Positions 20,386-53,558 of a stretch of DNA of 64,000 nucleotides are shown one piece after another. This DNA is from Hypanus sabinus (taxonomy: Eukaryota): NCBI RefSeq assembly GCF_030144855.1, contig NC_082715.1, positions 135,098,001 through 135,162,000 of the forward strand. The letters run 5' to 3'. The notes below the pieces were generated by a model. It did no database searches. It was not told the origin of the DNA and was given only the letters and a program-made list of their open reading frames with translations. The first letter of the stretch is position 1; every line of letters begins with the position of its first letter. The position numbers and the translations under genes are program-made.

Positions 20386-20389
20386 CAAG

Positions 20390-21935
20390 ATTCAAATAAA
20401 CCAAGGTCTATTTTAGTTTGCTTTCATCACTTTAAAATGAAAGATCAAATTATGAGAGGGCAAGGAAAGTGAGAATTTTCAGATTCAAGATGAGGATTAC
20501 CCGAAGGAGGTAATGGAACAAAGATCAAAATTTGCTTTGGGAATGAAACAGGCATATGATTTTTTAAAAAACTGTACCTGTTCTTGCGTTACCCAACCTG
20601 AATTAAAGTTTTTCCCCCAATTCTTCTGCTCGTACATTTTTTGATCATGAAGATGCACTATACCCACTGTAATTGACGATTGAACTGTGTGGAAGACTGC
20701 TTGGTTATCTGACATCTCATTGGTATTTCGGAAAGAAGATTTATGAAGATCACTTGGACATTTCATTGAGAGACTATTAAAAAGAAGATAAAGGTTCTTG
20801 TTCATTATTGCATATCATTGGTATTTCGGAAAGAAGATACATGGTTCAAATATGTTCAAATGGTTATTCGGACATTTGTCCGAGGAAAATAAGATAAAGG
20901 GACTTGTTCCTTTGACCTATTAATTGGTTTGATGTTTTTTTTTGTTTGTTTCTTAATGAATTGGTAGTTTTTCTTATTAATGGATTTTTATATATATATA
21001 CACACACACACACATATAGCTGGGGAGGGTTCAATTACTTACATAATATTACTAGTTGGTATTTTTGAAAATTTATTTGGGTTAAATATGCTATTAATCT
21101 TTTTTTCCTACTCTTTTTTTGAAGAACTGTGCTGATTTGTTATTAAAAACTATGCTTAGGTTTTTCTAGGTGACATGTTTTAGATCTTAAAAATTGCTTT
21201 TTTTTTCTTTTTTGGTTTAATTTCAATATATCAGTATGTTTTTAGATAATAGAATGTCATACCATCATATAACAGAATTTAAAGCTTTTTTAGGGATTTA
21301 ATGTTAAATTTAAGATGGTGTTGGATTTTCTTTTTCAGCCATAACATAGTTATCTTTAATTTATTGTTTTGGTCCTGTCGGGTTCTTTCTTCATTTAAGA
21401 AAGGCTAAATATGAACATGGGATAGTTTATAGATGTTGGAAATGTAAACATTTTCCTTCATTGAGATTTTGCTTTTCCTCTTACAAGGTCAGTGAGTTTT
21501 GTTTCTTTTAACTAGAGGGAGCGATTTAAAAATCTTTCTGAATTTTCTGTTTTTTTTTCACAGTACATCACTTTGTATCTATTTATGGGGTGCCTGCTAT
21601 CCTTCAGGCTGTGGGGGGAGGGAGTGGGGTTAGAGTTCGGGGGCTTTTCCCATTGGGTGGTTCCGGAGCATGCGTGTTTTCTATATGGTGGTTTCTTCAT
21701 CACTGCCATTTTTGATTATCCCATATTGGTATGTGCTCTGCGCTTGTGTAAAGTAGAATAAAACTCTGTTATGGTATTTAAACGGATTAATGTAATATGC
21801 TGGAATGTGTCTGGTTGGAATCATCCTATCAAACTAAAAAAGACTTTTAAAATCATCAATTGATTCCAATCTGATACAATTTTTGCCCAGGAGACACAAA
21901 TCAGGGCAGGAGATCGAAAGAGATTTTTTAGATGG
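20390..21935 (+). mobile_element. L1-clade fragment (ORF1 end, spacer, ORF2 endonuclease start)
   Basis: DYPKEVMEQRSKF at ~20495; INVICWNVSGWNHPIK...FAQETQ at 21785-21900. Confidence 0.7.
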
Positions 21936-26200: not shown

Positions 26201-27151
26201 AAAACTATATCAGCAAGTTTGCTGACGATACTAAACTGGGTGGCAGTGTGACATGCGAAGAGGGCGTTAGGAGAATACAGGGAGACTTGGATAGGCTGGG
26301 TGAGTGGGCAAATACTTGGCAGATGTCATTCAAAGTGAATAAATGTGAAGTTATCCACTTTGGAAGCTGGAACAAGAGGGCAGAGTATTATCTGAACGGT
26401 GTAGAGTTAGGTAAGGGAGAGATGCAAAGAGACCGAGGAGTCATAGTTCATCAGTCAATGAAGGTGAATGAGCAAGTGCAACAGGCAGTGAAGAGGGCAA
26501 ATGGAATGTTGGCCTTTATTACAAGGGGAATTGAGTTCAAGAGCAAGGATGTCCTTTTGCATTTGTATGGGGCCCTGGTGAGACCACACCTAGAATATTG
26601 TGTACAGTTTTGGTCTCCAGGTTTGAGGAAGGACATTCTGGCAATTGAGGAAGTGCAGCGTAGATTCACTAGGTTGATTCCTGGGATGGCAGGGCTGTCT
26701 TACGCAGAGAGATTGGAGAGATTGGGCTTGTACACACTGGAATTGAGGAGATTGAGAGGGGATCTGATTGAAACGTTTAAGATAATTAAAGGATTTGATA
26801 GGATTGAGGCAGGAAATATGTTCCAGATGTTGGGAGAGTCCAGTACCAGAGGGCATGGATTGAGAATAAGAGGTCAGTTATTTAAAACAGAGTTGAGGAA
26901 GAACTTCTTCTCCCAGGGAGTTGTGGAGGTGTGGAATGCACTGCCTCGGAAGATGGTGGAGGCCAATTCTCTGGATGCTTTCAAGAAGGAGCTAGATAGA
27001 TATCTGATGGATAGATAGGGGAATCAAGGGATATGGGGACAAGGCAGGGACTGGGTATTGATAGTGAATGATCAGCCATGATCTCAGAATGGCGGTGCAG
27101 ACTCGAGGGGCCAAATGGTCTCCTTCTGCTCCTATTGTCTTTTGTCTTTTT
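23290..27151 (+). mobile_element. 5'-truncated young CR1 LINE, copy 2, in ZNF-2 intron 1
   Basis: Nearly identical to 7642-11524, with ORF2 frameshifted. Flanks CTACCG / GAATTC rejoin to match the empty paralogous site GATACCAAATTCC at ~16006-16018. Confidence 0.95.
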
Positions 27152-29200: not shown

Positions 29201-30811
29201 AGGACCTATTATGTCCTGGTGTGTATGATGACTATGTTCTTGTTCTTAACCGACGTTTTGATGACAACCCCCCCTCCCCTGTTGTCCATTCTTCCTGATT
29301 GGTTAGTCCTTTCCAATCAGCTTTCTGCTGTCCCACTTTATTTACAATTGAATTTCAGTTCTTACTTAAGAGTGAGACCCTCATCTTTGTTAAAATTCTT
29401 CTTTTCTAGTTTGATTTCAATAGCTGGCTTAGCTAGGCAGTCCCAAAAGCGATTGGCGTGACGCAGTAGTTTTGTGCCCTCAAAGTTAATCCTATGGCCG
29501 TTGCCATCTTCGTCCACTTTTCCTGTACTCTGTGCAATTGATCTTTAAACACCCTCCACATGTCTGATGTGGACTTGCCAGAATAATGGTGTTCCCAATC
29601 AAATCTTAGTTCCTGCCCAATGCCCTCATAGTTTGTCCTACTGCAATTTAAAACTCCGACAAGGACCATACCTATCCTTATCTATAGCTATCCTGAAATA
29701 TAAGGAGCTGTCGCCTCTGTTCCCGAACCGTTCATCCACTGAAAGGTCAGTCACCTGGCCAGGCTCATTATCCAACACTAGGTCCTGTTATGACCCTCCT
29801 CTTGTTGATTTAGCTTTAGTTCTTGAGAATATCTTTTTTGCTCTGCCTTCTCTTAGTCTGGACCTTTTTACTTCTGAGAACGTGTTTTACCCCACTCTCT
29901 CTGGGTATTTCAAAAATTTCAATATTCATTGGCATTGCTGAGTTCACCACTATCAATTACTTGAGGGGGAGGGGTTCAGAATAACTAGAAAGTGTCCAGA
30001 TCAGCCATGTAATATCATGTATTCTTTGTAGTCCTGTGGGACTTGACCAGAACTTGAAATAATACTAATGCAGGCAGACTGAGCCAAGTCACAGGTTGAA
30101 GTTGGGCAGATATGGCCCATTCTGATACGGACAGAAAAACAGTCAGAGAATTTGATGGTCAGTCCAGATGACTGATCTCCGCCCAGTTAGAAGAGGAGGA
30201 GTGTTCCTTCAATGTGGGTTGAATTTCGCAGTTACAGTGTGATGTCAGAGGTCACCGTAAGGACTAAAATTATCACATCTAAAATGCTGTCCTTCACCAA
30301 CTGATGTCTTTTATAAATCTTACAGGGTTAGAAATGGTGAAGTTGTGAACGGGAATCTCAAACTCGAGCACCTCAGGTTTGCTGCGTCTGTGCAGATTTT
30401 AAGGAGTGACCAGATATTTCCTCTGTACCACCAATATATTTATTGCGATCGTTGGAGATGAAGAACTATTACATTCCAGCTGGGAATGTGCTTTGTGACT
30501 GAGATGAAGATTTTTGTTGTGACTCAGTGAAATCCACTAGAACTGACGTGCTGAGAACACTAGGTCTTCAACTGCATTGATTGTACAAGGGAGTCACTAC
30601 GTCAATCATCTGACTTAATGAATTGCTAGAGAATTGACAGTAGGGAGATATCATTCTCGTTCTGTCACGTGGAAGGGATTCACTCAGTTATCTGACCAAC
30701 TGTTCTCACTGTTCAGTTCACCTTGGAGAGAGGCTGTTCACCTCAGAATGTGGGAAGGAATCCATTAAGTCATCTGACCTACTGACACACCAATCAGTTC
30801 ACACTGGGAAA

Positions 30812-32158
30812 ATGCCGTTTACTTGCTCAGACTGTGGAAAGGGATTCTCTTTCTCATCCAACTTACAAAGACATCAGCGAGTTCACACTGGGGAGAGGCC
30901 ATTCACCTGCTCAGACTGTGGGAAGCGATTCACTAGACAATCTCACCTGCAGTCACATCAGTCAGTTCACACCGGGGAGAAACCATTCACCTGTTCAGAA
31001 TGTGGGAAGGGATTCACTCAGTCAAATGAGCTTCTCAGACACCAGTCAGTTCACACTGGGGAGTGGTTGTTCACTTGCTCAGATTGCGGGAAAGGATTCA
31101 ATTCGTTATCTGCTCTTCACAGACACCAGTCAGTTCACGCTGGGAAGGGGTTGTTCACCTGCTCAGATTGTGGGAAAGGATTCAATTCGTTATCTGCCCT
31201 TCACAGACACCAGTCAGTTCACACTGGGAAGGGATTGTTCACTTGCTCAGATTGTGGGAAAGGATTCTCTCGGTTATCTGAACTGAAAATACATCAGCGA
31301 GTTCACACTGGGGAGAGGCCATTCAACTGCTCAGACTGTGGGAAGCGATTCGCTAGGTCATCTCTCCTGTACAGACATCAGCGAATTCACACTGGGGAGA
31401 GGCCATTCACCTGCTCCGTGTGTGGGAAAGGGTTTGCTCGCTCATCCCACCTAAAGAGACATGAATCAACTCACAGTGTGAAGAAACCATTCACCTGCTC
31501 AGACTGTGGAAAGGGATTTTCCCAATCATCAGACCTACTGACACACCAGTCAGTTCACACGGGAGAGTGGTTGTTCACCTGCTCAGATTGTGGGAAAGGA
31601 TTCATCTCGTCATCTCAACTGAAAACACATCAGCGAGTTCACACTGGGGAGAAGCCGTTCACCTGCTCAGACTGTGGGAAGGGATTCGCTCAGTTATCCA
31701 CCCTACAGGCACACCGGCGACTTCACTCTGGGGAGAAACCATTCACCTGCTCAGACTGTGGTAAGCAATTCACTCAGATAACCAGGCTGCAGACACACCT
31801 GCGAGTTCACACTGGTGAGAGGCCGTTCTCCTGCTCTGAATGTGGAAAAGGATTCAGTCGGTTTTCTGAACTGAAAATACATCAGCGAGTTCACACTGGG
31901 GAGAGGCCATTCACCTGCTCAGACTGTGGGAAGCGATTCACTAGTTCATCTCTCCTGTACAGACACCAGCGAGTTCACACTGGGGAGAGACCATTCACCT
32001 GCTCCGTGTGTGGGAAAGGGTTTGCTCGAACATCCCACCTACAGAGACATGAGTCAACTCACAGTGTGAAGAAACCATTCACCTGCTCAGACTGTGGAAA
32101 GGGATTTTCCGAATCATCAGACCTACTGACACACCAGTCAGTTCACACGGGAGAGTAG
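30812..32158 (+). CDS. tandem C2H2 zinc-finger protein ZNF-2, 16 fingers, no effector domain
   Basis: 448 aa with 16 intact fingers; acceptor at 30325; ends at TAG 32156-32158 where sister linkers have TGG (TGEW). Confidence 0.92.
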   Translation: MPFTCSDCGKGFSFSSNLQRHQRVHTGERPFTCSDCGKRFTRQSHLQSHQSVHTGEKPFTCSECGKGFTQSNELLRHQSVHTGEWLFTCSDCGKGFNSLSALHRHQSVHAGKGLFTCSDCGKGFNSLSALHRHQSVHTGKGLFTCSDCGKGFSRLSELKIHQRVHTGERPFNCSDCGKRFARSSLLYRHQRIHTGERPFTCSVCGKGFARSSHLKRHESTHSVKKPFTCSDCGKGFSQSSDLLTHQSVHTGEWLFTCSDCGKGFISSSQLKTHQRVHTGEKPFTCSDCGKGFAQLSTLQAHRRLHSGEKPFTCSDCGKQFTQITRLQTHLRVHTGERPFSCSECGKGFSRFSELKIHQRVHTGERPFTCSDCGKRFTSSSLLYRHQRVHTGERPFTCSVCGKGFARTSHLQRHESTHSVKKPFTCSDCGKGFSESSDLLTHQSVHTGE

Positions 32159-32437
32159 TTGTTCACCTGCTCAGACTGTGGGAAGGGATTCGCTGAGTTA
32201 TCCACCTTCCAGGCACACCAGCGACTTCACTCTGGGGAGAAACCATTCACCTGCTCAGACTGTGGTAAGCAATTCACTGAGATAACCAGGCTGCAGACAC
32301 ACCTGCAAGTTCACACTGGTGAAAGGCTGTTCTGCTCTGAATGTGGGAAGCTATTCAGTCGGACATCCGAACTTACGAAACACTACCGAGTTCACAGAGA
32401 GGACACAATTTTAATATGCCTCATGCTGGATATTTAA
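32159..32437 (+). pseudogene. three further in-frame fingers (17-19) cut off by the TAG
   Basis: Same frame. The last finger [12 protein letters not shown] equals the last finger of ZNF-1. Shows L>F at the conserved Leu and a one-codon deletion. Confidence 0.85.
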
Positions 32438-33790
32438 CCATCAAATTTGCTGAAGTCAGAGACGAATTCAAAAGAGACTGTTGGTGTTGAACTCCAGTAA
32501 TTTTTGCTGCTGCTTATCACATCCAGTTCTACATCCTGGCCTCTGGAACTGAGAGGAGTTTCTTCTGCTGATGTTCACCTTTAATCCTTTAATGGGAGTG
32601 GAAATTAATTTTCTGGATACATTATTAATAAATCATTTGTATTTTAAACTTTGCCTCAGGTACTTGCTGGATTTACAACTCACCCCATGTACAGTAGACA
32701 GGCAGCTCAGTCCAGCTAGACCCTTCCAGTGTTTCTGTTCCATGATAATCCTTTTAAATCCATCCTGCTGTTCACCTCTCACTCGCTCTTTGGTGATGGG
32801 TTCCAGACAGTCTCCACCATGGCTGAAGAAGTTTCCCATGAATTTCCTGCATGACTATCTGCAGACCGAAGAAGAAGACAAACTGACTGCAGTTATGTTT
32901 CTGTCTCAGATCTCTTGCCTGAGGAAGAATATCCTTGTTGGCCAGAAGGGACTACAGTCTACAAATTATTGGATTTGAATGAATCAAGGACAGTGGAAGT
33001 AGACAAAAAGAACAACCGTCTACAAATCAGTGGATTCAGATGACTCAGGACAGAAGTAGCAGACAATCCAAATGTCTCTGTTTTCCATCATTTTGTGAAC
33101 TCTGAACTGATACTTGCTCGGGGATAATCTAATCAGAGCAATTGAATGTGGACATAAGGAGGTTCAAGTGATGACCTAGTGAATCTGAGATCATTCTCAG
33201 ACAAGTAGCTATTTATTAAGTAAAGTTCTAGTCCTACTAAAGAAGCAATCTGTAATCATGTTAAATTGAGTGTTTGGGTCAACTCGTTTAACTGGTTTGG
33301 ACCAGTCAGAGTTGAAAGGCACAAACACACAAAGATGGGAGGGGCATTAACCATGGAACAACATTGGTTGTAGCCCTAGACTAGAGCCAGTAAGAAGGTG
33401 ACCAAAGTAGGTCAGGTGACTTTGAGCCAATGGGATGGAAATCCATTCATTCAACTGATGAAGGAAACTATAAGAATCTGGAGCTCCAAATGCAAAATGG
33501 TGATAACTCTCCAGCAACCAGAGACCAACTATCATGGATGACAAGGGCGCCACAGACATGTGAGATTGGGACCACAAGGAACACCTGTCCAGCATAGACT
33601 CCTTTACTGGGTAATACCTTTTCTCTTAATTGACTGTTCATGGAGGGTCAGGGAATTCTAGTGGATATGCATACAGTTAGCTAGATTATGAACCACGTGT
33701 TCTTTAGTTGAGACAATAAAGGCTACTTCTTGGTAAATACAGATTCTCTCTGACTCTCTCTTCGGTATTATAAGATCTGTATAATAAAAT

Positions 33791-33811
33791 TGGCATCCCT
33801 GATGGTGGCTC
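33791..33811 (+). promoter_or_regulatory. ERV primer-binding site, tRNA-Asn-like
   Basis: TGGCATCCCTGATGGTGGCTC, 4 nt after the LTR, versus the tRNA-Asn complement TGGCGTCCCTGGGTGGGCTC. Confidence 0.6.
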
Positions 33812-33973
33812 AAGGATAAATCTTTCTCTTCATTTGTCGGGTCATGAAGGTAGGTAGTTAGAAGTTACTAACCCACATGAAAACCTCAAGGAAAATCTGC
33901 AAGCTCAAAGGTCTTGGGTTGTTTTGATTGGAAGGGATTCCTCTAGAAATTTGTGTTGAGGAAGTGGCCACAA

Positions 33974-36621
33974 GGGGACATCACGTGATGACGTAGGATC
34001 GAGACGTGGAAATCCAGCTCTCCCGTAAAAAACCAGTAAAACAATGTTTAAGTGAAGAAAAGTTAGTAAATACTTTCTAAAAGTTATTTATAAACTACTC
34101 AGGATTGTCCCAAGATATGTCTCATAAACAGAAGCAGAAGAAAACTACTACCTTGAAGACAACACAAGTTGGAAAAGAATCAAGGCCGGCCGCAATGGAA
34201 GGGCCGCGGGCTCAAGTGCATTTTACCTCTGGCGATACACAACAGGAAACTGCGGCAACATCAACAGTCTCCAAAAAAAAAGAGCAAAAGGAATTGCGCA
34301 TGCGTGAAGGAAGGGGAATGCGCAAACACGAGCAACTTAAACTACAAATCCCAGCTACGATTGGAACTGAAAATGAAAGTGAATCTGAGGTAGATTTAGA
34401 TTCTTTGGATAAATCAGACGAAGATGAAGAGACAAAATAAAGAAGAACAACAGGAAGAGATTGGAGGTGAAAGTTTTTCTGGAGACATAAGAAAATCTTT
34501 GGTGCAAATAATGCATTAATGAAAAGCATTAAAAGTAATAAAAATATTAAAAATATGAAGACTATGATAAAATGATAAAAAGACAGGACAAAATGGACAA
34601 GAAAATTAAAAATGAAACAAGTGACATCATTGATGGAATGAATAAAATGGAAGATAATATTTCTGCCTGGACATCAGAAAGAAAACAGTTGTTGGAAAAA
34701 GTGGACATGCTTGAAAATTTTAGCAGACGAAATAATATTAAGATTGTTGGACTTAAAGAAGTTATAGAGGGAGAGGATCCAATAATTTTTTTTCAAAAAT
34801 GGATCCCGGAAAATTTGGAAATGGAAGAAGGAACCCAGTTAATTGAAATTGAAAGGGCTCACAGAACCTTAAGACCAAGACCTCAAGTTGATCAAAACCC
34901 ACAATCAATCTTGATAAAATGCTTAAGATAGCAAGATAAAGTAAAGATCCTGAAGGCGGCTGCCCAACATGCCAGAAAGAGAAACGGGCCATTGATGATA
35001 GAAGGGAAAGCAGTTCTTTTCTATCCTGATATAAGTTATGACCTTTTGAAGAGAAAGAATGAATTTAATCCAGAGAAAAAAGTTTTATGGGAAAAGGGTT
35101 ATAAATTTATATTGCGTCACCTGGCAATCCTGATAGTTTTTTTGGATGTCGGAAAAAGAAGATTTTTTACTGATTATCGGGATGGGGAAGGGTTTGCACA
35201 AAAACTGCCAAATATTTGCTAACCACAGCCTAAGATTTAAAAGTGAAGTGGATTAAAGATGAAGACAGGGACAGTGAATGGAGTTGATGGACATATAAGA
35301 ACAGAAGAATATTGAAATATATTAGTAATTATATGATACAGGGGGTAAAGGTTAAAATTTGAGAAATATTAATCGAGAGTAGCGATATTTTTTCTTTTCT
35401 TATATATACTTTTTTAAGTTACGGGGGAGCTGGGGGAACTTCGGATCGATTGCTACGGGAATCACGTGTGTAATCATGGCGATTGCCATGACCCGTACAC
35501 CGGAGGGGGGTAATGTGTTTTCTTTTATCCACAACATTAGTAGGGGGGTATTCTGTTACTTTTTTCTTTATAATCTATTTTTCTTTTATTTTTCTTTCTT
35601 TGCCTGGATGATCACATAGCAACATGGAGAATTTTAAAAAGATTCCCCAAGGTACTCTGAAAGTTGAAAGATTAGGTATTATTATAGATTGGAGTAACCC
35701 TGTTAAAAATAATGACTAATTTACTGAATTTTTAAAGTTTTAACGTTAATGGGCTTAATGGACCGGTGAAAAGAAAAAGAATTTTAACATACATTAAGAA
35801 AATGAAAATCAATATAGCTTTTTTACACAAAACAAACTTAACAGAGACAGAACATCAGACATTAAAGAGAGATTGGGTCGGAAATGTTATTGCAGCTTCA
35901 TTTAATTCAAAGGCGAGGGGAGTTGCAATTTTGGTTAATAAAACTTTACCAATTAAAATACAAAATGTATTAATTCATTCGGTGGGCAGATATGTAATTA
36001 TACATTGACAAATTTTTTCAGAACTATGGACTTATGAATATTTATGCACCAAATGAAAATGGTGTAAAACTTATATGAGGCCTTTTTGAATTTGGCTGAC
36101 GCACACGACAAAATATTAATAGGTGTCTAGACCCAGTTTTAGATAGATCAACAACAGTTGTTACAAAATCAAAAGTAGCAAAATTAACTTTTTGATGAAA
36201 GATTTAAATTTGATTGATATATGGAGAAGAATTAATCCAAAAGAAAGAGATAGTTGGAAGAATGAAATTTTCAGCTGCATTCCACTTGAAAAAATTGCTT
36301 ATAATTTAAGAGATAAATATGAAATATTTCCGAAAATTTGGCGCACTTATTTACAAAAGATAGGATTAAATATATAGATGCTCCGAAGATAAAATTACTG
36401 GTTATTTGGGGAAATAAATAAATATATATACTAAAGCTATTATGAACTCCATGGAGCATGTGGGGATCTTCCGATATCCAGTCATTCTTTCTTTCTTTTT
36501 TCTTTTCATTGTTTTCTCTTCTATAGGGATATGCTGCGGGGAGGGGGGAAGGGTTGATAATTTTTTTTTTCTTTTTGTAACCTATTTGAAAACTCAATAA
36601 AAAAAATTATTAAAAAAAAGT
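33974..36621 (+). mobile_element. L1-clade element with 5' UTR, ORF1, EN and 3' end (RT deleted), inserted in the ERV leader
   Basis: LENFSRRNNIKIVGL, IEIERAHR, FYPDIS; SFNVNGLNGPVKRK; A-rich tail. TSD AAGTGG(C/T)CACAA at 33962-33973 and 36622-36633. Confidence 0.88.
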
Positions 36622-37499
36622 AAGTGGTCACAATATGAAGGGTTTGTCAGTCACCCTGGCTGCGAAGGGAAACCTACAGGGTATACCCTTTGGAAAATCG
36701 CCCAAGAGAAGCTGCCGGAATTGTTTAAACAATTACTAAAACTAGTTACAGTTGGTTATTTAATTGAGGATTTGCTACAATTACCACAGAGTGCTAAGGC
36801 AGAATGACACAGATTAGTAATAGAAAACAAATGTCAGCATAAAGCAAGTGAGATAGGTTACAACTAGAAATATTAGAAAATCGGCATAAAGCAGAAGCTG
36901 ACTAAGGTAGGTTAAATGGAGAATACAAAAGGAGGTAGAAAGCTTGAGAGAAAGGGTTACTGATTTACAGGGTCGAAGGAGTATGGGCTTGATGCTTGTG
37001 AACCAGTTTCAGAGAAAGCAGCCAAGATAGCAAAAAGTGAAGTGGAAGGATTAAGGAAACAGTGCAGTGATTTAAAGATGGCAATGCATATGATTCAGGA
37101 ATCAGCACAGGAAAGGAAGAATAACACTGGCGATCATGCAAAGTGTTTAAAGCAGATGCAAAAGCTGCAGGACCAACTTGCTGCACAGCGAGGAATAATA
37201 TGTGCTTTTGGATATGAAAGAGGGGAGGAAGGTGAATTTGGAGATATTGATTGGTATGATTTTGCAGATGAAGCTACTAGGTGACGGTTTTGATAATTAG
37301 GGATTTTTAAATTATGCTGAGGAACTATGACTGAAACCCTGGCAATGGCAACACTTTACATCAGTGAGATTGGGAGGGAGAAGGAACAACAGATTATGGA
37401 TTTAACCAAGGAGCAGAAGAAAAATAAAGATTTCAAAAAATGAATAGAAGGAGCAGGGTCTGAAATATACAAAGACAACAAGGGAGTGTTTGTTAAAGA

Positions 37500-38489
37500 T
37501 GAAGTAGTCCTGTATCATCAATGGGGACACCAGGGGTACAAAAGCACTCTGGAAAAGATAAAGGAAGTGTGCTGGTAGCCTAAGATGAAGGATGTCAAGA
37601 AATGCTTGATCTCTGCACCATATAAACCAGACAGAAAGGTAAAGAAAGGAGCCCTACAACACACCAGACCAGTGGAAGGGTCTTGGACTAATTTGCAGAT
37701 AGATTAATGTTGGTTCATTACTCTCCACCCCAGGAGGGTACAAATACATTCTGGTAATAGTAGAGACCTTTACGGAGTGGGTGGAAGGTTTCCTAGCTAG
37801 GACAAGCACAACAAAGGCCTTTGTAAAAATCCTATTGGAAAGATATTCACTTGCTGGGGATCAAGGCAGACATTTCACAGCCCAGATAATGCAAGATGTC
37901 ATGGCAGTTTAATGGATCAAGCAGAGATTTCATACACCCTGTAGACCACAGTCTAGTGGAATTGTGAAAAGAATGAATTGAACACTAAAAAATATGTTGC
38001 AAAAATGGTGCAGAAACATGGCAGGCAGTTTTGATAATAAGGAATAGAGAGCCATCTTCAACAGTTTACACCCCTTATAAGCACGTGACTAGAACGGACG
38101 TGAAAGGATTGGAGGAGTTGTTAGGATTAGATGTCAGAATGTGAAATTGATGGGATTGTGTTGGAAAAGTGGCTACAACAATTGGTAGAGACAGTGAAAG
38201 AGGCCAATTATGTGGCAGCCCACCAATTAGAAAAATGAAGAATCAACAAAGTGAAGCCTACTGTGACTCAAAAGTCAGTCTCATAGAATTAAGTCCAGGA
38301 TGGAGAGTGATGATTCAAATACATCAACCCACCTCATTTTTAAATCCAAAGTTTGCAGGGATCTATGAAGTTATAGACAAATCAAGTCCTTCAGTGTACA
38401 AAGTACTGACTCTTCCATATAAAAGTGGGTGGTACCATGTCAACCAACTGAAATTGCTGGGGGAGAAACAGGAATGTTATCACCATTGA
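37500..38489 (+). pseudogene. retroviral integrase remnant
   Basis: GHQG, GSWTNLQID, GYKYILVIVETFTEWVEGF, DQGRHFT, RPQSSGIV, and C-terminal LNPKFAGIYEV. Confidence 0.88.
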
Positions 38490-38822
38490 CACAGAACAAT
38501 TGATGTAGCCCTGATTTGGGAGTCTTGAGGATGAAACAACTTTTCCAAGTAAATGGGGACAGATCCCAGCAAGGGGTAATTTTCAGTTTCCTCATCCTGA
38601 GAACTGGGGATTTTTGTCAAAAAAAAAGGAAAAGGAAAATGTGCTAGTGCTTATCTCTCCTATCCTGAAATCACGTTGGGTGCCTTCAGTCCAAAGACAA
38701 TTGCGAGTCCAGATTGGATGGTCTAGAAAAACAAATCGAAAATATAGACTTAAAATAACTTAAGATTTAAACTTGAAATAAGAACAGTAATTACTGTTGT
38801 GTAATACAGATTTAATTCAACA

Positions 38823-41800
38823 TGGAGAGAATAATGTATCTTGTTGCAATGGAATTAACCCTGACTGGGGCCATGGTCAGTCTTGCTTCAGAGCTATTAC
38901 ACAAACATATCAATGGTGAGGTCATTGCTTGGAGAACACTCAGTGAACAAAAACAAATCTACTCAATGGAATTGGGTAATGTGGACTAACAAAGGAGAAA
39001 TGGAGGACTCCAATTTGTATTGTACTGGGGTAGATGGCTTGACAAAAGGTACAAAGCTACAATTCCTATGCAATAAAATTCTAGAGGTGGCATTATTCAG
39101 TATCCCAGAGGGGATAATCATACGCCGGTCTTTAGGTGCAATTACTCAGTAGCCTTCAGGTAATGATGGCCACAGTAAGATTACAGTTCTGTGGGATCAC
39201 ACTCAAGTGAATATTGAGTGTAGTAGTGATCTATACAAGAGGTATGTCGACTGGGCTGGCCATTCCAAGCATTTCGCAAAGGTTGCTTCTATCGTTATAA
39301 ACTGTCCACAGGAGAGTAGAATGGAGAATGCCCTAAAGGAGATGGGAAAGAGTTGCTGTCAGGGCCCAAGCCCTTTCCAGGTTTTTAAAACTTTGAAAAA
39401 TCTCTACCCCACAGCCTCTAGTGACGGAAACTACACCAGAGCCTAAATGTAGTGGTAACCAGTGTAATACGAACGGGATAAGATTAGTGTTAGAAGATAT
39501 GTGGAATTTGTCATTTCGGTACCAGGGTACCAGCATGTGCAGGTAAGTTTTAATCTCACTGAAGTAATGGTGCTCACCTACAATGGAGCAATAATTTACT
39601 CACCTTTTTGGAAGGTAACTAAGCAGTAGTGAATTTAAGTCCGTCAAAAGTAGAAGGGGTAGCAAGAGTCACCACCCTAGACATAGCAGAATTAGAAAGC
39701 CAGGTACAGTCTCTCCAGCAGAAAATACGAGATATTACTAGAGAAAATTATAAAGGTCAGCTACAAACTAATCAGATTGGTCGAGATGCATCCCAAGTAA
39801 CTCTGGATATGGTTAAATTTCTGAAGCCCCTTGTGACGGACATGGACTGTGCCTTTAAAAGAGAGAGCGAGAAACTGACTACTGCTGCCTGCTTCTAGGT
39901 TGCTATGGTGAAAGAAGTGGAGTTATATGATAGACAATTGATGTTTCCAGATGCTTTGCAGCGTGTTTATTTAAGGAAGATCAGATGACTCTCTTGCTGA
40001 GAGACACAGAGTGGAACACCAGTTAAGGCGGCCAGTCAAAAAAACAGGAAGCCAAGGACAGAAAAGTCACTGGGTAAAACTTTTGAGTGCCCACAAGGGT
40101 GGGTTGAGGATCGACCAGGGAAATCGTTCAGTGTCCATCATGGTGTGTAGAAGGGCTGACCCTGTGGAGGCTACCGGTGTGTTTACCCATGCTTGGGTGG
40201 TAGTTTTCCATCAAAGGCAGTACCCTTTGTGATCAGCTACGTTTGGTTAACTCGAGAGTGGATTTGGAGTTTGACGAGGGAAGACCAACCTGATTATTCA
40301 TTCTTCTCCTATTGAGGATTTCACCTTGGCTGACAGATACCTCTCTCTTCCCCCCCTCCCCCAAACCAACTCTGCATTGAACTGAACTTTCTTACATTAC
40401 CATCATAAGACTTTAAATCTTGCCACTGGAGCTTGAACGACTTTGGAAATCGTATTTACACACATGTATATGCATAACACTGCTATCTTTTGATTTACCT
40501 GGTTTAAGTTACTAAATTAAGTAGTTTCTAATAAATAGTGGTTTTTAGCATCAAAACCAGACTCCAGGTGTAGTCTATTGCTGCTGGTTCTTTTAAACCA
40601 TTGCATGCATGTAACAAATTTGGGGGCTTATTGATTGATCCATAATCTGAGTAGAAGATCGCAGCAATGGAGGTTGATAGGTTTCTGGCAAAGCCAGCCC
40701 CTGAAGCATTGGATGACGCTAAGAGGGCTGGGCTGTTGGAAATTGCTCAAAAGTTAAAACTTAAGGGGAACACTAAAATGAGGAAGGCTCAGATTTAGAC
40801 GTTAATAGTGGAGTATTATGTATCCAAGAAAGTGTTTGAGGAAGATGTGTTGGACATGTTTGCTGAAAGTAAATCTACTGAGGTTGAGATTCAGCTTCAG
40901 GTAGAAAAAATCAAGATGGCAGCTGAGGATAGGCAAAGATGGCATGAGTGCAATTAAAACAGCTCAAGGCAGTGGAAGCAGATAAAAAGAGGCAGTTGGA
41001 AAAGATAGGGATTGCAGCAAGGAGATCTACTGTTAGACCCTGGTGATTGGTTTAGTGCCAGTCGAGAAGTTGAAGTTGGTACCTCCGTTTGAAGAAACAG
41101 AAGTTGATAAATATTTCCTGCATTTTGAATAAATTTCTCAAAATCGAAAGTGACGGAAAGACGACTGGCCTGTTTTGTTACAAATTGTATTTAAGGGTAA
41201 AGCACAACAAACTTATTCAGCCCTATCACTTGAAGAGACAGGTGATTACGAATTAGTGAAAGAGGCTGTGCTCAAGACTTATCAGTTGGTTCTGGAAGCT
41301 TGCAGATAAAGGTTTAGGAATTTGAGGAAATCTGTGAACCGGACTTAAGTGGAATTTGCTTATGAGAAGTTTGTGTATTTTGATCGCAGGTGCACTTCTA
41401 AAAATGTAAATGATGATTTTAACAGCTTGAAAGAGTTGGTTTTGATTCAGGTTTTCAAAACCTGATGAGGTAAAGACAAATTTAGTTGAAAAGGATGCTA
41501 CCTCTTCGCATGCATCTGCTAGACTAGCTGATGAGTATGCTTTAACCCACAAGGTTAAGTTTACCCCAAATAAAGCTTCCAAAAGAGTAGCAGGGATAAC
41601 CCACAGGGTAAGCAAGAAATTAAATCGGGGACTAGTGACAGAAATAAGGACGATGGGAAGCAGTTGAGGGAGAAATCTTCCAGTCTTACTTGGTACTATT
41701 TTAAGAAACTGGGTCATATGATGACTAATTGTTCCATTCTGAAGAAGAGAAAGGAAAAGGAAAAGAAGGCAGTCCTGAATGCCTGTGTTCAGTGTGCTGA

Positions 41801-44800
41801 GGCACTGCTAAGGTTGGAGGGTCTGACCGAATTAAGGAGGGATTCGAATGGTTTCATATCAGATGGGTTTGTGTCCATAAAGGAGGGGTCAACCCCAGTC
41901 CCAGTGAGGATCTTTTGAGATACTGGAGCTTGTCAGCCCCTTATATTGGACAGTGTTCTGGAGTTTGGTGATGAGACAAAAACTGGTGAAGTCAATATTG
42001 TTAGAGGTATTGGGAAAGGGACTGGTTCCGTGCCTCTGCATAAGGTGATTTTGGAGTCCGGATTAGTATCAGGACATGTTAAGATAGGGATAGAACCTGA
42101 ATTACTGCTGAAGAATGGTTCTTTGTTGTTGGGCCATGACCTTGCAGGTGGTGAAGATTATCCAGCAGTGCAGCTAGCAAGCAAACCTGCCACTGATGAT
42201 CCATATGTGGATTCTGATGTTTATCCCCCCTGTGCAGTAACCCGAAGTATGACTAAAAGGTCTGCCGACACAGACAGTTCTGGGCAATTTGATTCTGATG
42301 CCCATGATAGCCAAAATCAGGGTTCAGGTTATGATGATTGACTTTTCAACACCTTTTCTACCCTCTATTTTTCAACAGGATGTAGGTAGTAAGTCTGATG
42401 AGAAAGGTTTGTCTGGGAAGGAGGTTATAGCAGAACTGAATCAATATTTTGAGACTGAAGCTTTCAAAGAAACAGCTCTCTCAGATTATGAGATTAAGAA
42501 AGTGCCAGTAGGGTATTATAGCAAGGATGGAGTATTGATCAGGAAGTGGAGGCCACCTACTGTACCTGTGAGCGAGGAATGGGTAATTGTTCTCCAAGTT
42601 GTAGTTCCTAAAGTCGATATAGGACTGAGATTTTAACTTCGGCTCATAATATGCCTTCAGGTGGACACTTCGGAGTGAAGAAGACTGTGAACAAGATTAT
42701 GAAGGCATTTTGCTGTCTAATTTAAGGGAAGATCTTGTGACCTTTTGCAGGACCTGTCGCACTTGTCAAGTTGTCGATAAACCTAACCAGGCCATCCCAG
42801 TGGTCCCACTTCAGCCTATACCCACTTTTGGAGCAACTTTTTCCACAATCCTAGTGGATTGTGTTGGCCCAGTGCCAAAGACTGCAGCTGGCCATCAGTA
42901 TTTGTGAAGCATTGTGTGCACTGCATCTAGGATCCTTGTAGTGATCCCTCTCAGGAATATTAAGGCTAAAACTGTGGTCAAAACCTTCATTAGGTTTTTT
43001 TATCTTGTTTGGTCTGCCCAGAGAGATTCAATCCGACCAGGGCAGTAATTTTACCTCAGGAATATTCCAGCAGATAGTTTATGAAGTGGGAGCTAAACAA
43101 ATTACATCGTCTGCATATCACCTGGAATCCCAGTGAAATTTAGAAAGATTTCATTCTACCCTTAAAACAATGACTAAGACATACTGTATTGAGAATAGGA
43201 AAGATTGGGATGAGGGGGTACATTTGCTCCTGTTTGCTGTAAGGGACTCAGTGCAGGTGTTGTTAGGGTTTAATCCATTTCAACTCGTGTTTGGTCACCG
43301 AGCGAGAGGACCTTTGACCTTGCTCAGTGAACACTGGTCTGATGAGAAGATGCATGTCAGCTTGTTATGTTTTGGAATTCAAGGGTAGACTCAACAGGGT
43401 ATGTAATCTTGCAAAACAGAACCTACAAAGTTGTCAAAATAAAATGAAGATCTGGTATGGTAAACGAGCTCGAGAGCAGACATACCACGTGGGTGACAAA
43501 GTGCTGGTGCTGTTTCCAATATTGACCAATCCGCTTCAAGCAAAGTTTAGTGGGCCATACCAAATAATTTCTAAAATCGATTCTTTAAATTATGTTATTA
43601 AAACAATCGACTGTAGAAAGCCCAGTCAATATGATAAAACGTTATTATGACTCAGAAATGGCATCTGTGAGTATTGTTGTGAGAACACATGAAACTGGAG
43701 AGCCTGAGGAAGGGGTGATTGACATGTTAGAAAACTTTATCAAGCCAAACATAGTCTCAGTGTGGCTCATGAATTCCACTAACCTGGAAAACATTGACAC
43801 CAAATTAAGCCATCCGCAGCCATGGCAGCAAAAACAATTGAAAAGTTGCTTCTTGAGTATGTGGATTTATTTCCCATTGTGCCCAAGCAAACCACTACTG
43901 CTGCTGTGCATGATGTTTATGTATGTCAGGCTGACCCAATTAAGCAGCACCCCTACCGGATGAATTTAGAAAAGAGTAAATTGGCTGAGCAAGAGATTGA
44001 ACACATGCTGAAAAATGGTATTGTTAGTCCGTCAACATCTGATTGGGTCTCACCTTGTGTTATTGTCCCCAAGCCTGACGGTAGTGTGAGATTTTGTACT
44101 GATTATAGGAAAGTAAATAGAGTGACAAAGACAGATGCTTATCCTATCCCTCGGGTGGATGATTGTATTGATAAGGTTGGAAAGGCTACATTCCTTATGA
44201 TGATTGACCTGTTAAAAGCGTACCGGTGTGTTCTGTTGACAGAAAGAGCCAGAGAAATCTCTGCGTTTGTAACACCTTTTGGACTGTATGAGTATAATGT
44301 TTTACCCTTTGGAATGAAAAATGCTGCTGAAACATTCCAAACAATAATTAATTCTGTGATTTGAGGTTTAGAAAATACAGATGCCTACATTGATAATTTA
44401 GATGTAGGGAGTGACACGTGGAAAGGACATATCTTGGCAGTAGAAAAACTATTTGACAGGCTCTCCAAGGCCCACCTTACTGTCAACCTAGCTAAGAGTG
44501 AATTTGGCCATGCTGCTGTTACATGTCTTGGCTATGTAGTAGGTCAAGGCCAATTGGCTCCGGTTCAGTCAAATGCTGAGGTTCCTATTCCAATAGGTAA
44601 AAAGGCTTTAAGAAGGTTTTTGGGAATGGTTGGACACTATCGTAAGTTTTGTAAAAACTGTTCTGATCTCGCTCTTCCCCTAACTAATCTACTTAAGAAG
44701 GGTGAAAAATTGGTGTGGACTGAACCTTGTTAGGAGGCGTTTGATCAATTAAATACTATTCTACAAACGTATGTTATCAACCTGTGCTCAGAGCACATGA

Positions 44801-47070
44801 TTTTACAAAGCCATTTTCTATAGCTGTGGACGCCAGTGACGAAGCTGCTGGAGCAGTGTTGTTACAAAAGAATGATGATGATGATGTTGAACATCCAGTA
44901 GCTTACTTTTCATGGAAATTTAATGAACATCAGAAGAATTATTCCACTATCGAGAAAGCATTGTTGTCACTCATTTTGGCCTTGCAACATTTTAATGTCT
45001 ACGTTTGTCCCGCACAGAAACTATTTGTGGTTTACACTGATCATAATCCATTAGTGCTTCTGAGTAAGATAAAGGACAAGAATAGAAGGTTGTTGAACTG
45101 GTGTCTGATTTTGCAGGAATATGACATGGTAATAAATCATGTAAAAGGTACCGATAACATTATCGCAGATTGTTTATCCGCGTGTTAAGTTAAAGTATGT
45201 ATACGCTTCTGGAATGTGTTACCTGATAGTTACATATGTATTGCTTCACATTCTATAAACTACAGTTATAAATCTTGCTCCTTGATCAAAATGTTCCCTT
45301 TTGGAGTGAGGTGTGATGGACATGGACTGTGCCTTTAAAAGAGAGAGAGAAAAACTGACTGCAGTACTGCTGCCTGCTTCTGGATTGCTATTTTGAGAGA
45401 AGTGGAGTTATATGATGGACAATTGATGTTTACAGATGTTTTGCAGCGTGTTTATTTAAGCAAGGTCAGATGACTCTCTTGCAGAGAGACACAGAATGGA
45501 ACACTGGTTCAGGCGGCCAGTCACAAAAAAGGAAGCCAAGGACAGAAAAGTAATTGGGTGAAACTTTCGAGTGTCCACAAGGGTGGGTTGAGGATCGATC
45601 AGTGTCTATCACGGTGTGTAGAAGGGCTGACCCTGTGAAGGCTGCCAGTGTGTTTACCCTTGCCTGGGTGGTAGCTTTCTCTCGAAGACGGTACTGTTTG
45701 TGATAAGCTACGTTTGGTTAACTCGAGAGTGGATTCGGAGTCCAATTATGGAAATCCAACAGCACCTGTTTATTCGTTCTTCTCCTATTGTGTATTTCTC
45801 CTTCGATTACAGATACCTCTCTCTTTCCCACCCCCCGCACCCAACGACTCCGTGCATTGAACTGAACTTTCTTACATTACCATCATAAGACTTTATGCTA
45901 TATTAAGTAGTGACTAATAAATAGAGGATTTTAGCATCAAAGCCAGACTCCAGGTGTATTCTATTGCTGCCGGTTCTTTTAAACCATTTTGTGTACATAA
46001 CACCCTTCAAGATACAACCAATCTGATTAGTGACCACATAGACGTAAATGTCTAAGGAAATGCATAAAACTGAGATATGTGTTACATATACTAGTTGGTT
46101 GCTACCATGATTGGATCTAATTTATTACAAATTGATGCACATGAAGTACCAAAATGGGTATCCGATGAGCAACTTGAAGAATGGGTTGTAGAAAGGGCAC
46201 AATTGTGTCATACTGGAAGCCTCACAATACCCAACAGGGTACTGGGTACCTGCGATGATGGTAAAGGAAGGTTTTATGTCAGTACAGTATTCCACATTCC
46301 CCAACATGGAATTAACTCAACCTACCATTGAAAAGGGTTCACAATGTTAGTAACTATGAGAATACATGGATATCCTCAAGTAACCCACGAACACATGCTA
46401 TTGTTATGAATGGCACTGGGAAGGAGACAGAATTATCAAGAGACCATTAGTCCTGTCCAGAAAAAATGACAAAGCAGAAACTTACAAATTGTGGTCTCAG
46501 TACTTAAGAAAATTGTTCATTGTCTACTTTGCCTGTGAATAATCAGTCTGTCTTACAATTTGCATTGGTGGGACAGACATTATATAGCAACAGTAGACGC
46601 AAGTTATACAAAGTGATGGAAGCATGCCCTTTGGAAAGTCTGAATGTTGCCATTGGGAATGCAGCATTGGATCTGGCCATTGGAGGACCAACTTTGTCAC
46701 AGCCAGCAGGAGATAGTAATGAAGGAGAACTTCAAGATCCAATGCTCTGATGCAGATCAATATCTGTGAGACTAAGTTATTACTGAATTGCCACCAATTC
46801 CTCACTTCAGTGCAGACTGGACAAGTGTTGTGGAGGGGTCAAGGGAGATGATCCATCAATGAACTAAACACACTAAAGTAATTAAAACACATGCTGGTAA
46901 GGCAAAAGAAATATTGTGTGACCCAGGCATTTGGAGTAACTTTTGGAACTGGGGAACAAATGTTCAAATACATCCGTGGGTGAGAATAGTATTGCATGTT
47001 GCTGTAATACAAATTGTATGTACACTGATTATTGTAATTCTTAATGAATATCAGCTGAGAAGGTGAAGGC
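38823..47070 (+). pseudogene. env remnant, class I fusion / F-like, split by a gypsy insertion
   Basis: Hydrophobic leader MERIMYLVAMELTLTGAMVSL. Heptad TLDIAELESQVQSLQQKI. The frame rejoins across the TSD (FLKPL|QDTTNLISDH). Then SNLLQIDAHEVPKWVSDEQL, a Cys-rich segment, and WSNFWNWGTNVQIHPWVRIVLHVAVIQIVCTLIIVIL (membrane-proximal + TM). Confidence 0.75.
39832..46002 (+). mobile_element. full-length Gmr1-like Ty3/gypsy element (gag-PR-IN-RT-RH), degraded
   Basis: LTRs 39832-40616 and 45312-46002 (TGTGA..TAACA); 4-bp TSD CCCT; PBS TGGGGGCT (tRNA-Pro-like) at 40621. PR DTGA ~41920, IN (CRTC, VDCVGP) 42640-43600, RT (FCTDYRKVN, PFGMKNA) 43900-44700, RH (DASD, YSTIEK) 44784-45188. Confidence 0.93.
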
Positions 47071-48514
47071 TGAAATAATGCAAAATCTAGAGGATAATAT
47101 TTTCATGAAACAGTAAAGTCTATTGTCAGTATGGTGTGTAAATTTAGTAAGTAAATGTTAGTATTATTTGTAGAATGTAAATATTACACACCTACTGGGG
47201 TTCCATGGCAGTCAACTGAATGAGAGAAGGAAAGGATCCTAAAGTAAGTATCTTTCCATCAAGAGCAGGGAGATCTTGGCCAGAAGGAACAGCAGTCTAC
47301 AAATCAGTGGATTCAGATGAATCAAGAACAGGGGAAGCAGACGAACCTATGGTCTTTGTTTCCCCCATTTTGTGAACTCTGAACTGATTCTTGCTCTGGG
47401 GTAAGGGTAATCTAACCAGAGCAATTGTATGTGGACACAAGGAGCTTTAGATAATGACCTGCTAAACTGGAGACCATTCTCAGACTAGTTGCTATTTATT
47501 ATGTAAAGTGCCAGACCTGCCAAAGAAGCAATCTATAATCTCATTAGACTGAGTGTCTGAGTCGCCTAGTTTAACTCGTTTGGACCAGTCAGGGTTGAAA
47601 GACATATATACAAAAGGCTGGGGAGGTGGAGGGCTGAAACCATGGAACAACATAGGTTGTAGCCCTGGACTAGAGCCAGTAAGAACATGAACCAGGTAGG
47701 TTAGGTGATCTTGAGCCATGGGGATAAGATCCATCAGTTGAACTGATGATGAACACGTTAAGAGTCTGGAGATCCAAATGTATAACAGCAATAACACTCC
47801 AGCAACCAGAGACCAACCATCACGGCTGAGGAAGATCCCACAGATACGTGGAGGTTGGGTCCACAAGAAACGCTTGGTCAGCATATTCTCCTTTCCTGTG
47901 TAATACCTTTTCTCTTCATTGACTGTTCATGGGGGATTGGGGAATTCTGGTGGGTGTGCACACAGTTAATTGGTTTGTAAGCCCACGTGCTTTTTAGTTG
48001 AGACAATAAAGGTTACTTGTTGGGAAATACAGATTCTCTCTCCCCCTCTCTGATCATTATTACAAAGGTACAGCCATATAACACTCTCATTATTCCCTGA
48101 TCATTTAAATGGTTTGGATCATTTTACCTGCTTCCAAAGGACTGTATCTCACACAGCTTATTTGTTAAAATACGCCACTGTCCTCTAAAGTCTGAAAGCA
48201 GAATGGAGAGCCATTTGTTGGATGTTTAACAGAGCAGACTGGTCAGTCAGCACAGGGCAGAGCTCTGGGCTCTGTTCAGTGGTAGGTGTAAGAGCATATG
48301 CTAGGGAGCAGGGAAATAAAGCAGGGGGTGCGTGGCATGAATAAAAAGCAACATTTGGAAGCTGATTGACAGAAAAAATTGGGTTGACTTTGTTGACACA
48401 ATGCCTGTTGACATTGAGTACAGTGTCTGTTGGGTTAAACTGGCTACTGAGTTCTCATAAAATTGATTGGCGCCATTTGGCAAAGTGAGGGCAATTCTTG
48501 TGAACACTTTCAAT

Positions 48515-50638: not shown

Positions 50639-50646
50639 TAAAGGTA

Positions 50647-53558
50647 ACAATTACCAAAACCAGTCGCAGTTGGCTGTTTAGTTGAAGATTTGATGCAATT
50701 ACCGCAGAATGCTAAGGCAGAATGTCACAGAATAGAAACAGAAAATGAATGTCGGCATATGGCAGAAGCCAAGTGAGTTAGCTTACAACAGGACATATTG
50801 GAAAACTGGCATAAAGCAGAAGCTGACTGAGATAGGTTAAATGGAGAACACAAAAGGAGGTAGAAAGCTTGAGAGAAAGGGTTACTGATTTACAGGGTGA
50901 AAAGAGTATGGACTTGATGCATGTGAACCAGTATCAGTTGAAGTCTAAGAAATTACTTAAAGAAAAATGTAAACAAGAGGAAGCCCCCGAACCAGCGAAG
51001 AGTGAAGTGGAAGGATTAAGGAAACAGTGCAGTGAATTAACGATGGCAATGAATGTGATTCAGGAATCAGCACAGGAAAGGAAGAGTAACACTGGCAATC
51101 ATGCAAAGTGTTTAAAGCAGATACAAAAGCTGCAGGATCAACTTGATGTACAGCGAGGAATAATATATGCTTTTGGATCTAAACGAGGGGAGGGTGAATG
51201 TAGAGATATTGATTGGTATGATTTCACAGATGAAGCTACTAGATAACGGTTTTGATAATTAAAAATGTTTTAATTTCGCCGAGGAGCTCCCACCAACACC
51301 CTACCAATGGGAGCACTTTACATCACTGTGATTGGGAGGCAGAAGGAACAACAGATTATGGATTTAATCAAGGACCAGAAGAAAGATAAACAATTCAAAC
51401 AAGTAATAGAAGGAGCAGGTTCTAAAATATACAAGGACAACAAGGGAGAGTTTGTTAAAGATGAAGTAGCCTATGATGAAGGATAACATGCAGCATTATG
51501 TCAAGAAATGCTTGATCTCTGCACCATATAAACCTGACAGAAATGTAAAGAAAGGAGCCCTACAACACACCAGCCCAGTGGAAGGGTCTTGGACTAATTT
51601 GCAGATAGATTATTTTGGTCCCTTACTGTCCACCCTAAGAGGGTACAAATATATTCTGGTAATAATAGAGAACTTTATGAAGTGGGTGGATGCTTTCCCA
51701 GTTAAGACAAGCACAGCAAGGGCTTTGTAAAAATCTTATTGGAAGGATATTCACTCGATGGTGATCAAGGCATCATTTCATAGCCCAGATAATGCAGGAT
51801 GTCATGGCAGTTTAAGGGATCAAGCAGAGATTTCATATACCCTGTAGACCACAGTCTAGTGGAATTGTGGAAAGAATGAATTGAACACTAAAAAAATATG
51901 ATTGCAAAAATGGTGCAGAAACATGGCAGGTAGTTTTGCCTTATGCCCTGATGATACTAAGGAATAGAGAGGCATCTTCAACAGCTTTATAAGCTCATGA
52001 CTAGAAGGGATATGAAAGGATTGGAGGATTATTCAGGATTAGATTTGTCAGAATGCGTAATTGAAGGGATTGTTTCGGAAAAGTGGGTACAACAATTGGT
52101 AGAGACAGTGAAAGAGGCCAATTATGTGGCAGCCCACCAAAGAGGAAAAAAAGAATCAGCGAAGTGAAGCCTACTGTGACTCAAAAGTCAGTCTCATAGA
52201 ATTAAGCCCAGGACAGAGAGTGATGATTCAAATACACCAACCCACCACATTTTCTTAAATCCAAAGTTTGCGGGGCTCTATGAAATTATAGACAAAACAA
52301 GTCCTTCAGTGTACAAAGTACTGTCTTCTCCATATGAAAGTGGGTGGTACCGTGTCAACCAACTGAAAAATTGCTGGGGGAGAAACAGGAATGTTATTAT
52401 TATTGGCACGTAACAATTGATGTAGCCCTGATTTGGGAGACTTGAGGATGGAACAACTTTTCCAAAAAGATGGGGACAGGTCCCAGCAAGGAGTGATTTT
52501 CAGTTCTCTTATCCTGGGAACTGGGGGATTTCTGTCAAAAACAAAGAAAAGGAAAATATGTTAGTGCTTGTTTCTCTTATCCTGAAATTAAGTTCGGTGA
52601 AGAAAAATGGATGCCTCGAGTCCAGAGACAATTGGACGTCCAGATTGGATGGTCTAGAAAAACAAATCGAAAATATAGACTTAAAATAACTTTAAGATTT
52701 AAACTTGAACTAAGAAGAGATATTACCATTGTGTGTTACAGGTTTAATTTAATGAGGACTAACAAAGGAGAAATGGAGGACTCAAATTTGTATTGTACTG
52801 GGGTAGATGGTTTGACAAAACCTTAGTTATTCCAGAAGGTACAAAACTATAATTCCTATGTTATAAAATTCTAGACGGCATTATTCAGTATCCTAGAGGG
52901 GATAATCATAAGTCAGTCTTTAGGTCCGATTATTGAGCAGCCTTCATGTAATGATGACAAGATAAGATTACAGTTCTGTGGGATCACACTCAACTGAATA
53001 TTGAGTGGCATAGCAATCTCTACAAGAGGAATGTCAACTGGGCCTTTCGCCTAGTTTAACTGGTTTGGACCAATCAGAGTTGAAAGACACATATAAAGAA
53101 GGCTGGGTGGGGTGTGGGGTGGTAGAAGCCATGGAACAACATTGGTTGTCGCCCTGGACTAGAACCAGTAAGAAGTTGACCCAGGTAGATTAGGTGATCT
53201 TGAGCCACGGGGATGAAGATCCATTAGTTAAACTGATGATGAACACAATAAGAGTCAGGAGATTCAAATGTATAATGGCGATAACACACCAGCAACCAGA
53301 GACCAACCATCACGGCTGAGGAAGACCCCACAGATATGTGGAGATTAGGACCACAAGGAACGCCTGGTCAGCTTGGACTCCTTTCCTATGTAATACCATT
53401 TCACTTCATTGACTGTTCATGGAGGTTTAAGGAATTCTAGTGGGTGTGCACACAGTTCATTAGTTTGTGAACCCAGGTGCTTTTCGGTTGAGACAATAAA
53501 GATTACTTGTTGGGAAGTACAGATTCTCTCCGCCTCTCTGATCATTATTACAAGTGTA
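50647..53558 (+). mobile_element. second, more deleted copy (B) of the ERV: gag remnant-IN-env start-partial 3' LTR
   Basis: Colinear with 36728-39256 and 47562-48075. Has the same gag/IN junction (DEATR) and the same downstream flank (53560-54160 vs 48084-48690). Confidence 0.88.

Follow-up and report, generated by a model that had tools for sequence, protein, structure and literature searches.

A stretch of 64,000 nt from the genome of the stingray Hypanus sabinus (NC_082715.1:135,098,001-135,162,000; hereafter the window, whose coordinates are used for its features) contains an endogenous retrovirus (ERV), here called copy A, that extends on the plus strand from 32936 to about 48082 (Table 1). 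A preliminary description of the window had placed this element in a probable lokiretrovirus- or spuma-related lineage with an envelope (env) protein resembling the paramyxovirus F protein. Our analysis indicates that copy A is probably a dead provirus of an old stingray family, with a canonical reverse transcriptase (RT) similar to that of snakehead retrovirus (SnRV) that forms its own deep clade, and with a likely F-type env that has a putative receptor-binding front domain.

Copy A is dead, internally deleted and unable to move or to fuse membranes alone. Comparison with a fuller copy (L067) showed that about 3.7 kb is gone, including capsid, nucleocapsid, protease (PR), RT, tether and RNase H, so the window retains only a gag remnant, integrase (IN) and env. 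The long terminal repeats (LTRs) have the TGTT and AACA outer ends described previously and were aligned over 775 sites. At a Kimura two-parameter (K2P) divergence of 0.20, their age would be about 200 million years at a rate of 0.5e-9 (given in a section of PMC10699275) or about 460 million years at 2.2e-10 (given in a section of PMC4422223). Since the two rates disagree and no target-site duplication was found at the LTR ends to prove that the LTRs are a pair, this dating is unreliable. The primer-binding site (PBS) begins TGGCATCCCTG, and the corresponding site in copy L026 is TGGCGTCCCTG. All four loci checked that match the PBS motif were tRNA-Asn(GTT) genes, in agreement with the Asn-like PBS proposed earlier; in copy A, 10 of the first 11 positions of the site fit the motif, with divergence beyond them. 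The integrase signature GSWTNLQIDYFGPL...KWVDAFP, said to be clearest in a second copy (copy B), was indeed present there and is broken in copy A. The long env was likewise borne out, its split pieces (39400-39832 and 46066-47033) being 29-69% identical per piece to an intact relative. Relative to four of five aligned copies, 44 nt are missing (35 nt relative to the fifth), a gap that covers most of the furin site and the beginning of the fusion peptide, as had been suspected near 39630. The env gene ends about 160 nt before the 3' LTR, and no accessory open reading frame (ORF) of the kind that foamy viruses have at this place is present.

Table 1. Features of the retroviral copies in the window.
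Feature	Position	Strand	Remark
5' LTR	32936..33790	+	starts TGTT; alignable to 47274-48075, K2P 0.20
PBS, tRNA-Asn type, diverged	33791..33808	+	motif comparison with copies and tRNA genes
L1-like insert: ORF1, ORF2 start, poly(A) end	33970..36620	+	other copies without insert; left end approximate
gag 5' part, coiled-coil region, broken	36630..37299	+	
Internal-deletion junction, ~3.7 kb lost (capsid, zinc knuckle, PR, RT, tether, RNase H)	37299..37366	+	relative to fuller copy L067
Integrase: HHCC zinc finger, core, SH3-like C-terminus; broken	37366..38486	+	
env signal region and N-terminal domain, fold without family match, broken	38823..39430	+	conserved among copies
env F2-like part, furin/fusion-peptide junction with 44-nt gap, start of heptad repeat 1 (HR1)	39400..39831	+	
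Nested gypsy retrotransposon	39832..46002	+	LTR K2P 0.12, 4-bp target duplication CCCT
env remainder: Cys-containing core, heptad repeat 2 (HR2), Trp-rich segment, transmembrane segment, short tail; broken	46003..47115	+	
Polypurine tract	47261..47273	+	
3' LTR	47274..48082 (end approximate)	+	starts TCTT, ends AACA
Copy B: gag remnant, internal deletion as in copy A, integrase, part of env N-terminal domain, partial LTR	50646..53554	+	

The family is repeated through the genome. Searches with the window env gave 48 matches at the DNA level (40 of 489 candidates scored) and 151 at the protein level (150 of 498 candidates scored), and every copy of the window subfamily that was fetched is broken. 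Copies L067 and L029 contain, in a single run, a coiled-coil gag, PR, RT, a Ty3-like tether, a second RNase H, IN and env; a CCHC zinc knuckle was seen in the gag of L067, and Pfam matches in the fuller copies include PR, RT and RT_RNaseH. Copies A and B are only 83% identical and nevertheless have the identical internal deletion (37299-37366 and 51305-51330), which hints at either an old duplication or a derivative that carried env but was non-autonomous. Three copies of the window env lie nearby (L002-L004; G000:C28:135005238, 135079375 and 135164329) with 91-98% identity, one of them inverted, and are likely segmental duplications. Many pol copies with near-equal scores were located on small unplaced contigs (e.g., C2442, C2354, C1020 and C2427) and probably belong to a larger repeated unit.

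Placement was evaluated with trees of 57, 26, 44 and 37 rows. These rows were chosen among 120 database hits, 50 viral contigs and pieces of the copies in single frames; redundant avian rows were dropped, and no fish or shark foamy-like ERV (FLERV) was included. Anchors were identified by motif: P0013 is the SnRV RT of the PMC7947760 supplement, and P0116 and P0051 carry lokiretrovirus (loki) motifs. Rows for foamy viruses, walleye dermal sarcoma virus (WDSV)-like viruses, gamma and delta retroviruses were taken from viral contigs. The family RT has the motifs QYTWTALPQGFHNSP (the canonical LPQG) and YVDD, whereas PFG is found in all nine loki RTs shown in a part of the supplement of PMC7947760. 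Among named viruses SnRV was the best match (190 bits, 47% identity), compared with 141-145 bits and 36-38% identity for loki, 125-135 bits for foamy, 133 for WDSV-like and 108-112 for gamma RTs. Frog and coelacanth relatives gave 199-240 bits (53-54% identity), and the nearest database relatives of the family pol were also frog and coelacanth pol proteins (51-52%), the closest of which carry a NYNRIN-like annotation.

The family formed a clade with Latimeria and frog sequences, X. tropicalis rows among them, with support of 87/93 in one tree and 92/93 in another. The loki, foamy, ERV-L/S and epsilon-gamma-delta sequences formed separate starred clades with the family outside all of them; the five foamy RTs were united at 100/100, and none of three trees placed the family within the loki clade. 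An approximately unbiased (AU) topology test rejected the grouping of the family alone with loki (p-AU 0.044), but it is a weak test of placement because groupings with SnRV (0.086) and with gypsy (0.108) survived. By sequence, the family RT is placed in a deep clade of its own with coelacanth and frog elements. Lokiretroviruses are defined by where their RT falls, and membership was not upheld in view of the RT position, the LPQG motif and the closer SnRV score; the earlier assignment is supported on its spuma side (a class III grade) and, save for tether and integrase, not on its loki side. A gamma/epsilon class I ERV was also rejected, the RT being outside that clade and the env lacking the CX6CC motif and the immunosuppressive domain (ISD), as was Ty3/gypsy (Metaviridae), the fuller copies having two RNase H domains and an RT outside the gypsy clade.

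Tether and integrase sequences lean loki-like. Loki was the best named reference for the tether (61-72 bits, vs. 48-57 bits and 24-26% identity for SnRV) and scored 100 bits against the N-terminal half of IN, where SnRV scored 72-77; the nearest row to the IN core by score was a gamma row. In the IN phylogeny that had been suggested as a check, copy B joined the family (96/87), and the family grouped with frog and coelacanth rows, the partial loki IN and long gypsy branches (92/93), with SnRV elsewhere. The loki affinity seen there is shared with the long-branch gypsy rows, in a tree with one partial loki row and no CGIN1 row. Dual RNase H domains (tether and RNase H), present in the fuller copies, are common to all retroviruses.

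The architecture of env was read from a sister subfamily, which holds one intact env ORF (L050; 733 amino acids from a local ATG) that is about 46% identical to the window env over the piece searched. It encodes, in order, a signal peptide, a front domain of about 190 residues, a Thr-rich linker, an RRRR furin site, a fusion peptide, a long HR1, a Cys core, HR2, a Trp-rich segment and a transmembrane segment. A phmmer search with this env detected 36 relatives in which the best stretch never lay before residue 197. Nine of the ten clusters looked up carried names and came from sharks, a skate and frogs; one of them was labelled "Ig-like domain-containing." Two of 16 relatives scanned with Pfam gave F-type matches, both below the curated cut-off: P0176 (phmmer E 1.4e-5) to Fusion_gly (E 4.7e-6) and another to Baculo_F (E 0.0011). 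The F-like part aligned collinearly, furin site to furin site, with the env of SnRV and of a WDSV-like virus (z 5.9 and 0 of 300 shuffles for each) and with one foamy env (z 4.4, 2 of 300). Two gamma envs aligned over short stretches only (4 and 170 of 300 shuffles). Motifs common with the Loki-Str env were recognized by eye. Neither CX6CC nor ISD was present in the intact relative, as described earlier for the window env, and both were found in two of two gamma control envs. From the indirect Pfam link and the collinear alignments, the family env is likely to be a class Ib fusogen of the paramyxovirus-F type, a reading to which the predicted folds added no support. It does not single out loki, since the furin-to-furin alignment extends to SnRV, WDSV-like and foamy envs. 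The SnRV (L101, 6131-9535) and WDSV-like (L144, 5962 onward) envs also have no CX6CC or ISD and align furin site to furin site with the ray env, which suggests that they may be F-type as well.

The region ahead of the F-like part (38823-39430) is conserved in many copies, which upholds the extra N-terminal domain proposed in the preliminary description; no donor was found that would mark it as captured. A Pfam scan of 20 rows gave nothing common, no family match was obtained in Pfam, Atlas or Foldseek searches, and the Atlas lead (Methyltransf_FA, 0.82) was under the 0.9 mark. A comparison of front domains between the two subfamilies, in which 3, 10 and 7 of 100 shuffles reached the score, gave only suggestive homology. 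The replicating ancestor would have primed on tRNA-Asn and produced env from a spliced transcript; once cleaved by furin, env would have acted in membrane fusion as an F-type trimer. The front domain may have been a receptor binder retained on the surface subunit, similar to coronavirus spike, in which a front receptor-binding domain precedes the fusion part (a section of PMC11468914).

Several results weigh against a family with its own RT clade and an F-type env. At depth the RT tree is a polytomy, and the topology test rejected neither loki (p 0.29) nor foamy viruses (p 0.24) as the sister group of the wider clade; its grouping with SnRV received only 23/70 in the best tree; loki is represented by two rows, one partial; and a PDB sequence search ranked foamy RT first, in a database without SnRV or loki RT. 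The F-like env of the preliminary description keeps its Fusion_gly link through P0176 and its alignments, and the intact env itself had no direct F match in Pfam or PDB. PDB sequence searches with env gave nothing relevant, protein searches returned 0 of 646 candidates for a 180-residue env piece and 1 of 7211 (itself) for the intact env, and the search of the genome with PF00523 had no match and was uninformative. A second foamy env aligned less well (z 2.8, 7 of 300 shuffles), a gamma env reached z 3.1 over a 55-residue stretch, and hhalign against the SnRV env was weak (probability 2%; E 0.11 among 193 ORFs). The AlphaFold and Foldseek check suggested earlier gave poor models for env (74 rows, pLDDT 46; long helices predicted, remainder poor) and for the front domain (20 rows, pLDDT 34), and three Foldseek searches had no match at E<=0.001, with F proteins solely among the non-significant rows. 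Atlas leads for the whole env (spike, HA and Fusion_gly, 0.81-0.86) were under the 0.9 mark.

It is unlikely that the family is a lokiretrovirus or a sister lineage that would extend lokis to cartilaginous fish. Such an origin would fit the likely F-type env, the dual RNase H, the tether and IN scores, the placement of IN with the partial loki IN away from SnRV, the survival of the wider clade with loki in the topology test and the NYNRIN-like pol relatives, loki IN being reported near CGIN1 (a section of PMC7947760). It conflicts with the LPQG motif, with an RT far nearer to SnRV, with the starred RT clade of the loki rows, with the gypsy rows in the IN grouping, and with the gag CCHC knuckle, a motif not spotted in the Loki-Str polyprotein. 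Equally open to strong doubt, and judged quite improbable, is a basal foamy-like ERV of the shark and frog FLERV kind (CmiFLERV, XtrFLERV and ERV-Spuma-Sca). The Asn PBS of newt FLERVs and the clustering of shark and frog FLERVs (a section of PMC5512871), the F-like foamy Env (a section of PMC11468914) and the X. tropicalis rows in the RT clade are consistent with it. The 100/100 foamy RT clade is separate from the family, and fish FLERV RTs, CmiFLERV and XtrFLERV not among them, were unlike the family RT by eye. Foamy viruses have no gag CCHC knuckle, no well-kept tether and no N-terminal signal peptide, all of which set the family apart. XtERV-S is ERV-L-like with a dUTPase and a gamma-type env (a section of PMC8278194) and was rejected as a different clade.

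The intact env belongs to a tandem array of seven copies of the sister subfamily outside the window (G000:C28:117.66-118.40 Mb; L050, L056-L065), the other six of which have frameshifts or stops. It is annotated as LOC132401028 (C28:118.0 Mb), a spliced gene of 745 amino acids with an N-terminus defined by the NCBI annotation. Contigs from run X1, which may be RNA, spanned the ORF without indels, and one linked it, across GT-AG sites, to an exon lying 5.4 kb upstream, yielding the annotated N-terminus. The 40 listed of 48 differences in this comparison comprised 21 synonymous and 19 non-synonymous changes with no stop or indel (pN/pS 0.26-0.36, p<=0.0012). Hemitrygon akajei has an annotated 745-residue protein 96.1% identical to the intact env; it and X1 have 18 of 18 amino-acid changes in common and are therefore one line of evidence, and the test of purifying selection covers two lineages, both stingray genera.

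These sequence comparisons indicate that the gene is likely a captured, host-kept env, spliced and under purifying selection in two stingray genera. In the host it may serve as a fusogen or receptor blocker. The alternative, a proviral copy that is simply young or lucky, is rather doubtful. The six broken paralogs (dN/dS 0.49-0.82 vs. the intact copy), the small divergence between the two genera and a 3' flank only 3.3% different (32 in 970 nt), which leaves a constraint of about two-fold, would suit a lucky copy and count against capture. The degraded IN and RNase H upstream of the gene, the 7-13 stops and 11-14 frameshifts in all three dispersed relatives compared, the pattern of substitutions and the full-length protein in Hemitrygon argue for a retained host gene. 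Stingrays are viviparous, and the uterus is therefore the first tissue to examine. Literature searches gave no precedent for a captured class Ib env in cartilaginous fish. A broader scenario, offered tentatively and with considerable doubt, is that an unnamed shark, ray, coelacanth and frog retrovirus lineage bridges loki and canonical retroviruses, that the F fusogen is the ancestral retroviral env and that stingrays domesticated one. Such a lineage would combine a canonical RT with a loki-like tether and IN and an F-type env whose front domains can be exchanged. F-type env would then be kept also in SnRV, WDSV and foamy viruses, and the env of live-bearing stingrays would be a working F-type fusogen or receptor blocker.

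The window also contains two C2H2 zinc-finger genes (18314-19348 and 30644-32370). Because a duplicated block (18192-20396 and 31257-33496) extends into the beginning of the ERV LTR, the ERV insertion is likely older than the gene duplication. Two CR1-like long interspersed elements (7642-11523 and 23290-27147) share 96.5% identity, and the first of them has long open frames.

Compared with known systems, the family is, on the sequences examined, an SnRV-grade ERV with a likely F-type env and a front domain without a match. SnRV, the best named RT match, shares a coiled-coil gag with a CCHC knuckle and an env with a long front part, a furin site followed by GL and no CX6CC or ISD. It differs in its tether, in an IN on another branch, in an env of about 1100 rather than 733 residues with an unrelated front domain, and in that no accessory ORF was seen in the family. 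SnRV-like ERVs are known in the elephant shark, whose lineage I CmiERV was likened by description, its sequence not being compared (Han, 2015; a section of PMC4422223). Lokiretroviruses, for which the part of PMC7947760 consulted reports no cartilaginous fish, share the likely F-type env, the dual RNase H with a Ty3-like tether, a coiled-coil region before capsid and a similar tether and IN, and differ in RT clade and in the Loki-Str env, which has no front domain of about 190 residues (Wang and Han, 2020). Foamy viruses and FLERVs share the likely F-like fusogen and, in some, the Asn PBS (sections of PMC5512871 and PMC11468914); they differ in their separate RT clade, the family has a zinc knuckle, and its putative binding module precedes the F scaffold instead of interrupting it. 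Wang and Han found no similarity between loki and canonical envs and favoured independent gains of env (sections of PMC7947760 and PMC9040795). The combination of a canonical-type RT with an env linked to F, SnRV, WDSV-like and foamy proteins makes a single-origin scenario testable. No description of the family env or the captured gene was found in the literature, and RT-only screens may already contain the clade, sampled but unnamed. The C28:118 Mb gene resembles syncytins and other captured envs in being an intact, spliced and selected env within a decayed provirus. Captured env genes are reportedly mostly gamma-type; the stingray gene differs in being likely F-type and in a cartilaginous fish, and would provide a natural, host-encoded F-type env for the study of tissue and function.

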